DNA of 64,000 nt from Deferribacterales bacterium (GTDB lineage Bacteria > Chrysiogenota > Deferribacteres > Deferribacterales > Geovibrionaceae), in the NCBI GenBank assembly GCA_050253075.1, contig JBFWJS010000006.1, positions 128,001 to 192,000 on the forward strand. The letters are read 5' to 3'. Position 1 is the first letter of the stretch. Each line of letters opens with the position of its first letter. Under the pieces are notes generated by a model. That model did not search any database and had not been told where the DNA came from. It worked only from the letters and a program-made list of their open reading frames with translations. Of this stretch, positions 5,850 through 33,063 are shown in pieces. The position numbers were made by a program, and so were the translations under genes.

Positions 5850-6026
5850 TTAACTGTGTAAAAAACCTTCATCCTGAAGTTTTTTACTATCGCTCTGCCG
5901 AACAAGTACGGCTTCGCTCTCTCTGCGCTGTTTAACAGCTCCGAGAAGCACATCGTGTGCTTTTAACTGTGTAAAAAACTTTCGTCGGAAAGTCTTTACT
6001 ATCGCTCTGCCGAACAAGTACGGCTT
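5850..6026. repeat. Composite hairpin element with a 64-65-bp direct duplication (5850-5914, 5963-6026)
   Basis: TTAACTGTGTAAAAAAC..TTTACTATCGCTCTGCCGAACAAGTACGGCTT occurs twice, with the AAGCAC-atc-GTGTGCTT hairpin between. Confidence 0.8.
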
Positions 6027-26562: not shown

Positions 26563-27505
26563 CGTCATTGCGAGGAGCGTAGCGACGCGGCAATCCTAGC
26601 CCTAACACAAACTGTCATCCTGAATGAAATGAAGGATCTGTGCATGTCAGATTCTCCGCCTGTGGCTCAGAATGACTACCAAATATACGTCATTGCGAGG
26701 AGCGTAGCGACGTGGCAATCCTATCTCTAAATACAAACTGTCATCCTGAATGAAATGAAGGATCTGTATATTTCAGATTCTTCGCCCGTGGCTCAGAATG
26801 ACTACACATCATATGTCATTGCGAACGCAGTGAAGCAATCCTAGCCCTAAATATAAACTGTCATCCTGAATGGAATTAAAGATCTGTACATTTCAGATTC
26901 TTTGCCCGTGGCTCAGAATGACTACCAAATATACGTCATTGCGAGGAGCGTAGCGACGTGGCAATCCTAGCCCTATATATAAACCGTCATACTGAATGAA
27001 ATGAAGGATCTGTACATTTCAGATTCTTCGCCCTTGGCTCAGAATGACTACCAAATATACGTCATTGCAAACGCAGTGAAGCAATCCTATCTCTAAATAC
27101 AAACTGTCATCCTGAATGAAATGAAGGATCTGTACATTTCAGATTCTTCGCCCGTGGCTCAGAATGACTACACATCATATGTCATTGCGAACACAGTGAA
27201 GCAATCCTAGCCCTAAATATAAACTGTCATCCTGAATGAAATGAAGGATCTGTACATTTCAGATTCTTCGCCCTTGGCTCAGAATCACGAGTACGCACAT
27301 TAATAGGAATCCTAAGATTGCTTCGTCATTCCACTCCTCGCAATGACCTTGAATTTAGCGTCATTGCGAACGCAGTGAAGCAATCCTATCTCTAAATACA
27401 AACTGTCATCCTGAATGAAATGAAGGATCTGTGCAGTTCAGATTCTTCGCCCTTGGCTCAGAATGACTACCAAATATACGTCATTGCAAACGCTGTGACT
27501 GCAAT
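26563..27505. repeat. Tandem array of GTC-tagged palindromic (REP-like) repeats: 7 A-B-C units, 1 inverted A and a partial 8th A
   Basis: A copies start at 26564, 26689, 26815, 26935, 27061, 27181, 27360 and 27480. B = GTCATCCTGAATGAAATGAAGGATCT. C = AGATTCTTCGCCCKTGGCTCAGAATGAC (inverted). Inverted A at 27315-27347. Confidence 0.95.
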
Positions 27506-29846: not shown

Positions 29847-30860
29847 ATGGCTTTTAATGACCTTTTACTCAGAACTATGAACGGTGAAAAAACTGACAGA
29901 CCTCCGGTATGGTTTATGCGTCAGGCCGGAAGATACATGGAAGAATACAGAGAAGTACGCAGCAAGGTTTCCTTCCTTGAGCTTTGCAAATCCCCGGAGC
30001 TTTGCACAGAAGTTACACTGCAGCCGATCAGAGCTTTCGGCTTTGACAACGCTATCCTCTTCTCAGATATCCTCATCCCTATCGAGCCTATGGGTGTCGA
30101 TCTCGACTTTAACCCTGCTCCTGTCATATCAAATCCTATCCGCACACTTGCGGATGCAGATAAACTTCGCGAGATAGACCCTGCGAAGGACGTTCCTTTC
30201 GTGCTTGAGACAGTGAAAATGCTCGTAAAGGCTCTTGATGTGCCTCTTATCGGTTTCTCAGGCGCACCTTTCACACTCGCCTGTTACATGGTAGAGGGTA
30301 AAGGTTCTAAAAACTATGAATATATCAAAACTATGATGCACGCAGACCCTACAACATACAGAGTAATGATGGAGAAGCTCGCAAACTCTACCCTGAAGTA
30401 CCTTCAGGCACAGATAGACAGCGGTGCTCACGTCGTTCAGATGTTTGACACATGGGCTGGCGTCGTTTCTAAATATGACTATGAGAAATTCATATTCCCA
30501 TACGTTGAATACATCGCAAACAACCTTAAAGGTGCTCCGCTCATCTATTTCGCAAAAGACAGCTTCAGCTTCTATGACATCATAGGAAAGCTGAAATGTG
30601 CAGGAATGGGTGTAGACTGGAAAACAACTCTCGCAGACGCAGACGAAAGACTCGGCAAGGGCAAATTTGTCCTTCAGGGTAACTTCGACCCTGTTCAGCT
30701 CTTCGGTAGCAAAGAATCCATCAAGGAAACAGCCGAAAAGATCCTCGCAGAGGGTAAAGACCTTAAAGGTCATATCTTTAACCTCGGACACGGTATCCTC
30801 CCTCCTACTCCTAGAGAGAATGTGGACTACCTTGTTAAGGTCGTTAAAGGGGAAGCATGA
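29847..30860 (+). CDS. hemE: Uroporphyrinogen decarboxylase
   Basis: PVWFMRQAGR, FSDIL, GAPFTLA, NLGHGI. Confidence 0.97.
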   Translation: MAFNDLLLRTMNGEKTDRPPVWFMRQAGRYMEEYREVRSKVSFLELCKSPELCTEVTLQPIRAFGFDNAILFSDILIPIEPMGVDLDFNPAPVISNPIRTLADADKLREIDPAKDVPFVLETVKMLVKALDVPLIGFSGAPFTLACYMVEGKGSKNYEYIKTMMHADPTTYRVMMEKLANSTLKYLQAQIDSGAHVVQMFDTWAGVVSKYDYEKFIFPYVEYIANNLKGAPLIYFAKDSFSFYDIIGKLKCAGMGVDWKTTLADADERLGKGKFVLQGNFDPVQLFGSKESIKETAEKILAEGKDLKGHIFNLGHGILPPTPRENVDYLVKVVKGEA

Positions 30861-31804
30861 AAAAAGACCTGCTTTATGTGATGTATATGGGCGGTCCTGA
30901 TAGTATCGAAGGGATAGAGGAGTTCCTCTTTAATCTCTTTTCGGACCGCACCATCATCGACTTTCACATCGGCGGCACACTCCAGACATTCATAGCGAAA
31001 AAGATAGCTAAAAAACGCTCCGTTAAAGTTGCGCCCGAATATGAAAAGATAGGCGGACGCTCTCCGCAGCTCCCCTACCTTCAGGCTATTCTGGAAAAGA
31101 TAAAGCCGCTCTACCTCACTGAAACAGGGCGTGAGCTCGTCACCGATATCGGTATGTGCTATTACCATCCGTACATCGAGGACTCCATACAGAAGCATAA
31201 CGGTGCAGACTATGAAAATATCATAGTCACCAGCATGTATCCGCAGTATTCATATACCACCAGCGGTGTGTGCTTCGACAGATTTGCAAAGGTGCAGAAG
31301 CTCGTTAAAGAACCTAAGATCATCAAAGAATGGTACCGTAACGAAGCATATAATAAATGTATCTCAGACAGGATACTCAGAGCAGCGGAAAAGCTGGGCA
31401 AGGACATAACCGACTGCCACGTGGTATTCTCTGCGCATTCCCTCCCCGAATACACCGTTAAAAAAGGCGACGTTTACACCATGCAGATAAACGAGCAGGT
31501 GAAAAAGCTCGTCAGCATGACACACCCGAAAACATATAACCTCGCATACCAGAGCCGTACAGGCCCCGTGAAATGGGTCGGTCCATACACGGATAAAGAG
31601 CTCGAAAGGCTCACGGCAGAGCGTGTGGATAACATCATCGTCGTGCCTATATCGTTTGTATCCGACCACATCGAGACTCTGATAGAGCTGGACGAGCAGT
31701 ATATGCCGCAGGTGCGTGAGGCAGGGCTGAATATCGTCCGCATCGAAAGCCTGAACGACTCAGACGACTTTGCCGAGGCATTCTTAAATATAATATCCGC
31801 ATAA
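30857..31804 (+). CDS. hemH: Ferrochelatase
   Basis: MGGP, YPQYS, FSAHSLP, YQSR..W.GP, DHIETL.ELD. Confidence 0.93.
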   Translation: MKKDLLYVMYMGGPDSIEGIEEFLFNLFSDRTIIDFHIGGTLQTFIAKKIAKKRSVKVAPEYEKIGGRSPQLPYLQAILEKIKPLYLTETGRELVTDIGMCYYHPYIEDSIQKHNGADYENIIVTSMYPQYSYTTSGVCFDRFAKVQKLVKEPKIIKEWYRNEAYNKCISDRILRAAEKLGKDITDCHVVFSAHSLPEYTVKKGDVYTMQINEQVKKLVSMTHPKTYNLAYQSRTGPVKWVGPYTDKELERLTAERVDNIIVVPISFVSDHIETLIELDEQYMPQVREAGLNIVRIESLNDSDDFAEAFLNIISA

Positions 31805-31806
31805 CA

Positions 31807-31841
31807 GTCATCATGAGGAGTGATAACGACGTGATGATCTC
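31807..31841 (+). repeat. GTC-tagged REP-like hairpin, left end of the GIY-YIG cassette
   Basis: GTC-ATCAT-GAGGAGTGATAACGACGTG-ATGAT-CTC; same loop core as array type A. Confidence 0.85.
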
Positions 31842-31856
31842 AGACTAGGCACACTT

Positions 31857-32144
31857 ATGAGAAACGGTTATGTTTACATAATAACTAATTCAAACAACTC
31901 AACTCTTTACGTTGGTGTAACTTCTAATATCAAAAAGAGAATATACGAGCACAAACAGAAATTTATTGACGGTTTCTCTAAAAAATATAACCTTACAAAG
32001 CTTGTTTATTTTGAATGTTTTGATAATATTACAGATGCTTTGTGCCGAGAAAAACAACTCAAAGCATATAAACGAGCTAAAAAACAAGAGATAGTAAACT
32101 CTCTTAATCCTGAGTGGAAAGATTTATACGAAGGTATTCTATAA
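31857..32144 (+). CDS. Stand-alone GIY-YIG nuclease
   Basis: GYVY..LYVGVT..R..EH..REK..NPEW; 84 of 288 bases are G+C (29%) by hand count. Confidence 0.92.
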   Translation: MRNGYVYIITNSNNSTLYVGVTSNIKKRIYEHKQKFIDGFSKKYNLTKLVYFECFDNITDALCREKQLKAYKRAKKQEIVNSLNPEWKDLYEGIL

Positions 32145-32154
32145 TCTAAATGCT

Positions 32155-32189
32155 GAGACTCTCACGGTCGCCAGCTCCCTCAGAGTGAC
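32155..32189 (-). repeat. GTC-tagged REP-like hairpin, right end of the GIY-YIG cassette
   Basis: Reverse complement GTC-ACTCT-GAGGGAGCTGGCGACCGTG-AGAGT-CTC. Confidence 0.85.
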
Positions 32190-32214: not shown

Positions 32215-33063
32215 TTGGAAAAATTCAAAACATTTTTAAGCATGATAAAAGTGGAGCACACCCTTTTCGCCCTCCCCTTTGCCTTCACAGGCATGTTTTT
32301 AGCGGCGAGAGGCATCCCTTCGCTCTCTACTATATTCTGGATAGTCATAGCCGTTCTGGGTGCCAGAAGCGGTGCTATGGGATTTAACCGTGTGGCGGAC
32401 GCTAAGATCGACGCACGAAACCCCAGAACAGAAAACCGTGACATCCCCGCAGGGCGCATATCCGTGAATGAAGCTACGCTGTATGTGGTGATATCCTTCG
32501 CCGTATACTTCTTCGCCGCTTATATGCTGAATCCGCTCTGTTTCTATCTCTCTCCCGTTCCATTTGCCGTATTCATACTATATTCATATACAAAGCGTTT
32601 CACGTTTCTCTGCCACATTGTGCTAGGCGTTGCTCTCGGCATAGCCCCCATCGGCGCATGGGCAGCCGTCACAGGCTCGCTGAACCTCGGCATAGTTTTA
32701 CTCGGCATAGCCGTTCTTTTCTGGGTTTCAGGCTTTGATATAGTATACGCATGTCAGGATATCGACTTCGACAGAGAAGAAGGCCTGTTCTCCATCCCCA
32801 GATACCTCGGGCTGAGAAATTCGCTGAACCTCGCAAGGGTATTTCACATCATATCCTTCCTGATATTCCTATACACATGGGTATATTTCGACCTTGGCAT
32901 TATATATCTGGCGGGAATACTGCTCACGGGCGGATTCATGGTTTATCAGCACTCCATAATAAAACCCGAGGATCTCAGCAGGCTCGACATGGCATTTTTC
33001 AATCTAAATGCATATATTAGTCTGAGCATTTGCGCTTTCACATTTTTAGACCTTGTAATATGA
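32215..33063 (+). CDS. mqnP: UbiA-family polyprenyltransferase (MqnP-like, futalosine menaquinone pathway)
   Basis: IKVEHTLFALPF, NRVADAKIDARNPRT, GFDIVYACQD; probable TTG start at 32215 (the track's GTG lies inside the repeat). Confidence 0.8.
   Translation: MEKFKTFLSMIKVEHTLFALPFAFTGMFLAARGIPSLSTIFWIVIAVLGARSGAMGFNRVADAKIDARNPRTENRDIPAGRISVNEATLYVVISFAVYFFAAYMLNPLCFYLSPVPFAVFILYSYTKRFTFLCHIVLGVALGIAPIGAWAAVTGSLNLGIVLLGIAVLFWVSGFDIVYACQDIDFDREEGLFSIPRYLGLRNSLNLARVFHIISFLIFLYTWVYFDLGIIYLAGILLTGGFMVYQHSIIKPEDLSRLDMAFFNLNAYISLSICAFTFLDLVI

Follow-up and report, generated by a model that had tools for sequence, protein, structure and literature searches.

Between hemH, which encodes a ferrochelatase (30857..31804, + strand; PF00762), and a gene for a UbiA-type, mqnP-like prenyltransferase (32215..33063, + strand) lies a compact 383-bp cassette consisting of one short nuclease gene and two hairpin repeats. 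The window, by which is meant the whole 64,000-nucleotide stretch of Deferribacterales DNA that was analysed, had been the subject of a preliminary description made from the letters alone, and both repeats stand where that description placed them and with the letters it gave: a left repeat (31807..31841, + strand) with an ATCAT/ATGAT stem, and an inward-facing right repeat (32155..32189, − strand, hence read from 32189 to 32155) with an ACTCT/AGAGT stem. Each is GTC-tagged and assigned both from its own sequence and from membership in a genome-wide family, the left one being a variant of the SRM or CGTC-REP type. The gene between them (31857..32144, + strand) is, as had been claimed, a stand-alone and low-GC one: its 95-aa product is a lone GIY-YIG domain (PF01541, E 7e-16, residues 3-76, Pfam) with no other domain beyond a T5orf172 match overlapping PF01541, and its GC content is 29.2% versus 46-49% for hemE, hemH, mqnP and ubiX. 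The cassette was also said to interrupt an operon; it does lie between hemH and mqnP, but the position is intergenic and no gene is broken. Likewise, the label mqnP holds only in part, as the product passes a UbiA-like model, TIGR01475, and no other, but with 314 against 430 bits stays under the NCBIfam MqnP cut-offs. The start of this gene, judged from its relatives, is most likely the TTG at 32215, which they share. The reported absence of a visible target-site duplication was upheld on re-examination, and no direct duplication surrounds the cassette either. A scan of 31.7-32.3 kb for promoters and terminators remained at background, and between 24 and 35 kb of the window no Rfam match was found at E up to 5. 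Elsewhere in the window, at 5861-6026, two direct 54-nt copies, 83% identical, lie 112 bp apart.

Judged by homology, catalytic residues and clade, the encoded protein is an Ssn-family GIY-YIG nuclease. Chenal et al. (2025; PMC11893778) define Ssn proteins as GIY-YIG proteins of a single domain (cd10448), with CGTC-tagged hairpins, termed NTS or SRM, on the flanks of their genes. Homology to SsnA is placed there at E < 1e-10 over >75% of its length, and the window protein aligns with an NTS-flanked homologue from N. gonorrhoeae, used here as a stand-in for N. meningitidis SsnA, at 42% identity over 90 aa without gaps (E 3e-26, with the database size set to 1e6); in size, too, a single-domain protein of 95 aa agrees with the family (about 94 aa, under 150 aa, single domain). 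The N. gonorrhoeae homologue has 9 NTS copies within its 3.3-kb locus. In the record of that locus (L111) the frame has no ATG where the start is expected, and the record itself, although filed as a plasmid, has the size of a chromosome. Invariant in all nine aligned proteins are Y7, Y18, R28, H32, E65 and N84, among which Y7, Y18 and E65 correspond, with numbering by way of the N. gonorrhoeae stand-in, to Y6, Y17 and E64, the residues that N. meningitidis SsnA requires for cutting (PMC11893778). A quick tree (74 rows and 98 columns, 8 of 82 rows having been omitted as fragments or duplicates; midpoint root, many open forks) places the window protein together with NTS/SRM-flanked proteins on one side of a branch with support of 100, with five outgroup rows opposite; this outgroup consists of GIY-YIG proteins of about 84 aa, and a hairpin lies nearby at none of six such loci. 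No NCBIfam model exceeds its cut-off with the nuclease, the phage collection gave no match, and the PDB, searched by sequence, gave only a distant UPF0213 protein (1zg2, E 0.003) and no Ssn structure.

The two cassette repeats belong to a large family with a common build, in which a 5-bp outer stem is followed by GA opposite GA, GAA or GTG and then by an inner mini-hairpin, with GNA loops in 36 of 63 short-type hairpins. All five stems listed in the preliminary description (ATTGC/GCAAT, ATCCT/AGGAT, ATTCT/AGAAT, ATCAT/ATGAT and ACTCT/AGAGT) are present. The GTC tag that it held to be common to the cassette and to a nearby repeat array is indeed shared; the GA..GA frame needs a small correction, both cassette repeats closing with GTG instead of GA on the 3' side. 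That gene-less array (26564..27467) repeats a unit of about 120-126 bp, holds 18 hairpins of the same family and separates a GGDEF gene from a convergent UPF0047 gene. Genome-wide, 272 hairpins were found versus 3-6 per dinucleotide shuffle (five shuffles), and 276 versus one for a reversed-pattern control, the family amounting to about 280 copies. Stem positions 3-5, when left free, pair in 301, 301 and 281 of 322 candidates (shuffled means 170, 155 and 165), counts that come from related copies and hence do not amount to a p-value. Under standard DNA energy parameters the single cassette hairpins are no better than shuffles (z 0.20 and 0.27), and the case for a hairpin structure consequently rests on covariation. 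The DNA folding energy model omits sheared G-A pairs.

The base before the GTC tag is variable (C 90, T 103, A 69, G 24; n=286), and among these 286 hairpins 92 pairs face inward, 15 stand back to back and 16 are in tandem. Nearly all are intergenic, with only 13 of the 286 wholly inside ORFs of at least 150 aa, though such ORFs make up 86% of the genome. At the 92 inward doublets, the longest common flank is distributed as in shuffles, and the two longest examples belong to tandem clusters; flanking duplications are not in excess there. Gene-less doublets form clonal families at many loci, one of 81 bp (about 17 of the 20 doublets of that length) and one of 131-133 bp (11 copies), with examples at C1:32357, C2:261543 and C4:46725 of the source genome (G000). 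Given that these families keep conserved flanks, the mobile unit would exceed the GTC-to-GAC core. Each family has a further, AT-rich inverted repeat to one side, and its members are frequently followed directly by terminator-like T runs. The published SRM search pattern yields 12 matches in the genome versus 13-19 in shuffles, none of them at the cassette, and at homologue loci from other lineages it succeeds at 0 of 53 versus 33 of 53 for the hairpin model used here. It is for this failure of the published pattern that the repeats are termed an SRM-like variant. In the supplement of the published survey, an ssnA homologue is recorded by tblastn for 3 of the 8 Deferribacterales genomes listed, with SRM counts at or near background (PMC11893778). 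The bulged repeat type likely constitutes a new ssDNA target specificity that this survey undercounted.

The association of gene and repeat extends well beyond the window. All three short GIY-YIG genes of the source genome are repeat-flanked on both sides, and its fourth PF01541 match lies inside a 601-aa frame. Within the same order, a hairpin lies within 300 bp at 14 of 16 strong homologue loci, the source genome's own three counted. For other phyla, the peptide words of the query picked out 54 GTDB loci, hence no random sample, and 53 remained once a single locus at E > 1e-10 had been removed; a hairpin lies nearby at 33 of the 53 and on both sides at 19. The density of hairpins is about 47-fold higher near the gene (83 in 29.6 kb) than farther out (5 in 84.1 kb). 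Orientation is not fixed, with only 8 of the 19 doubly flanked loci inward, and under a strict model 2 of the 16 close and 20 of the 53 distant homologue loci are hairpin-free. Among 41 related genomes, whose kinship means that they are not independent, at least 10 repeat copies occur in 10 of 11 with the gene versus 13 of 30 without it. Despite their many repeats, G002 (117 copies), G007 (118), G009 (112) and G038 (143) show no strong gene match under the window query. The anticipated enrichment of repeats beside short GIY-YIG genes is thus found both in the genome itself and in other taxa, and the proposal of a GIY-YIG nuclease as partner of (C)GTC repeats is borne out across phyla; the pairing was, however, already published. 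Among homologues, the one nearest to the window protein (65%) lies at locus L036 of genome G003; it has an internal TAG stop and stands beside repeats of the rare ATCAT-stem subtype. Such ATCAT repeats beside both this homologue and the window gene give a weak hint that enzymes and repeat subtypes may be paired. A Y1 or RAYT transposase was not found in the source genome (99.89% complete). Y1_Tnp was considered as an alternative partner and rejected, its matches occurring in 18 of 41 genomes and in none of the repeat-rich G000, G006, G007, G009 and G011.

Comparison of the hemH-mqnP junction drew on 41 genomes, in 37 of which mqnP had a match, and on 30 fetched loci. In all 29 relatives hemH adjoins mqnP with no GIY-YIG gene at the junction, and the gene is accordingly not vertically conserved there (0/29); no outcome that the preliminary description had named as refuting came up. 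At this junction (L007) G003 carries an inward doublet with no gene, its first stem being of the same rare ATCAT type, and G001 and G002 carry none. In L007 the hemH stop codon is supplied by the left repeat of the doublet. Further, a strain present in public contigs (run X3), about 96% identical by 38 differences in 987 hemH bases, lacks the cassette: in its contig, 158 different letters connect 31786 and 32205, so that 418 bases, the last 18 of hemH among them, are replaced by 158 and no clean empty site is left. As to excision, contigs of the likely source run, X2, show no joint across the cassette, contigs being prone to drop rare forms; runs X4 and X11, in which most of the cassette is uncovered and no contig bridges it, were not counted. 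At the same junction, L012 (G014) and L013 (G006) hold an unrelated repeat with long C/G runs, which marks the junction as an insertion hotspot. The absence of the cassette from close relatives is compatible with nuclease-aided spread of the repeats rather than proof of it.

The source genome has two further Ssn genes, paralogues of the one in the cassette. The second Ssn gene lies between hisF and hisE, flanked by near-identical direct copies of a back-to-back doublet (L001:1376-1810; G000:C1 ~248220-248655), and the third follows hemL, where a doublet is directly duplicated together with about 20 bp of adjoining sequence, stop codon included (L003:1350-1850; G000:C2 ~445960-446450); the direct copies around the two genes are 85 bp at 91% and 90 bp at 81% identity. 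The two copies at hisF-hisE agree exactly in their hairpins and differ in their 6-bp spacers, the expected place of cutting. At the hisF-hisE junction the paralogue is absent in five of five relatives, three of which (G003, G006 and G010) have a single back-to-back doublet; at the hemL junction it is absent in all three synteny-keeping relatives (of five), one of which (G002) has such a single doublet. The last ~85 bp of hemL are themselves duplicated in G000 and G003 (L003:1843-2146 and L122), around a different, GC-rich hairpin repeat outside the GTC family. The three paralogues of the source genome are only 55% identical, and so the cassette has not recently been copied within it. More broadly, direct duplications of at least 45 bp at 80% identity or above flank 16 of 66 homologue loci, some being merely repeated hairpins. 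Ahead of an intact Ssn gene in G008 stand two inward doublets in tandem (L048:1166-1450), each with the 3' end of that gene as its spacer; the orthologous site of G013 (L128) has no gene but one such inward doublet, which retains the 3' end of the gene that is intact in G008. To judge from the gene end that they enclose, these doublets are internal-deletion derivatives of a cassette. Cassette-derived remnants dispersed through genomes were also considered and set aside, the remnant being confined to the G008/G013 orthologous site, with no gene-end remnants elsewhere in G000.

Four purified Ssn members cut ssDNA near their own repeats; N. meningitidis SsnA does so a few bases upstream of the repeat and leaves dsDNA, RNA and the reverse strand untouched, and the tested Neisseria enzyme requires stem sequence in addition to structure (PMC11893778). 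Given that the window gene belongs to the Ssn family, its repeats are probably cut as ssDNA as well. Cutting upstream of the hairpin by the window enzyme is likely by analogy with the four tested members (PMC11893778), the closest of which is only about 42% identical to the window protein and recognises an unbulged stem. The preferred reading, which has good odds of being correct, is that the enzyme binds the single-stranded repeat and cleaves it immediately 5' of the GTC tag, after which host repair or recombination moves or deletes the unit. In detail, the tag-first strand of the repeat, when single-stranded, would be bound and cut a few bases 5' of GTC, and the gene-plus-repeat unit would be gained or lost at intergenic positions as host recombination and repair act on the cuts, with no strand transfer of its own. 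With inward repeats, one cut per strand would fall immediately beyond either end of the cassette; a back-to-back doublet would place both cuts within its 6-14 bp spacer, which might then serve as the entry site. Gene-less doublets could arise from internal deletion and afterwards spread with the help of the enzyme. The movement step is likely, drawn as it is from comparison of filled and empty sites, and is weaker than the cutting step.

Of the other readings, the one that survives best is that the enzyme is a domesticated host factor cutting repeat-bearing ssDNA, whether incoming DNA or replication hairpins, while the repeats spread otherwise and the gene lands at recombination hotspots. N. 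meningitidis SsnA does lower the integration of NTS-bearing transforming DNA about 5-fold (PMC11893778), some repeat-rich genomes are without the gene, and the hemH-mqnP and hisF-hisE junctions gather unrelated repeats in several lineages. Yet a domesticated gene would be expected at a fixed locus, and there are three divergent copies at sites not common to relatives; nor do other genes attract repeats, which lie wholly within long ORFs in only those 13 of 286 cases and thin out some 47-fold away from Ssn genes. This explanation is consequently considered improbable. Slightly more doubtful is an autonomous transposon, in which the GIY-YIG enzyme would be the transposase, excising or copying the 383-bp unit as well as the gene-less doublets and inserting them elsewhere, as HUH transposases do for IS200/IS605. 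The compact gene between inward repeats, the existence of filled and empty sites, the clonal doublet families at many loci, the lack of a Y1 transposase in the source genome and the direct duplications around two paralogues would all suit such an element, but target-site duplications and near-identical cassette copies are absent, the ends vary between homologues, repeat orientation is variable, and the empty site is imprecise, as the X3 allele illustrates. GIY-YIG enzymes, moreover, hydrolyse DNA, which counts against this reading, and are not known to form a covalent intermediate such as HUH enzymes employ in joining. That the nuclease spreads these units autonomously is an inference at most, set beside no target-site duplication, no near-identical second cassette and some repeat-rich genomes that are gene-less. 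That an ordinary repair-type GIY-YIG gene fell by chance between two of the roughly 280 nearly all intergenic repeats is highly implausible, since all three short paralogues are flanked on both sides and the association recurs across phyla, the ~84-aa outgroup loci being hairpin-free.

Ssn-directed cutting followed by host-mediated movement stands as the preferred reading. A broader proposal, with somewhat less than even odds, is that Ssn nucleases are the missing mobilisers of CGTC-REPs, and that the cassette is a minimal selfish element which enters back-to-back doublets at its own paired cut sites, duplicates the doublet and sheds, by internal deletion, gene-less doublets that spread. If true, GA-bulged repeats would bring many more lineages into the system, with one ssDNA specificity per enzyme. 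The pairing of gene and repeat and its biochemistry are already published as Ssn/SRM (Chenal 2025, PMC11893778), and the present finding accordingly contributes a member and no new system. The additions made here are modest, namely a GA-bulged repeat variant and comparative signs of movement. A search of openly accessible literature found no work testing Ssn-driven mobility. The multiplication of CGTC REPs was left without an explanation in 2013 and became the subject of a hypothesis, no more, in 2025; the filled, empty and remnant sites make the question testable.

The nearest known system is Ssn/SRM itself, with which the window genome shares a single-domain GIY-YIG protein of 94-95 aa with conserved Y/Y/E, oriented GTCA-tagged hairpins at the gene, a C directly after the stem, hundreds of intergenic copies (PMC11893778) and the repeat-gene-repeat layout. 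It differs in that its repeats are GA-bulged with an inner mini-hairpin and are missed by the published SRM pattern, and in that one genome combines many stem variants with three divergent enzymes; in the accessible portion of PMC11893778, no comparison of filled and empty sites was found. The CGTC-tagged REPs, described as families CGTC-1 to -4 by Di Nocera et al. (2013; PMC3733652), resemble the present repeats in their terminal CGTC/TGTC tag, a stem opening with AT, a short unpaired tail, a predominance of inward (HH) heterodimers and the lack of a tyrosine transposase partner; that study found no partner enzyme. Judged by these described traits, the tag, the AT stem start, the tail and the HH excess (92 inward pairs, 286 hairpins) all place the window family in the class, unlike the first tag base, which is loose in the source genome. 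Finally, the RAYT/REPtron system with GTAG REPs is alike in having a small nuclease gene between its REPs and gene-less doublets and arrays elsewhere (PMC3733652, PMC11893778), and unlike in its HUH/Y1 fold and GTAG tag, against GIY-YIG, a GTC tag and no Y1_Tnp match here. The suggestion of a RAYT-like layout with GIY-YIG in place of HUH was partly supported and right in outline, but PMC11893778 had already drawn it: there NTS-ssnA-NTS is noted to resemble an insertion sequence and is likened, as a hypothesis, to IS200/IS605 transposases and to RAYTs with their REPs.
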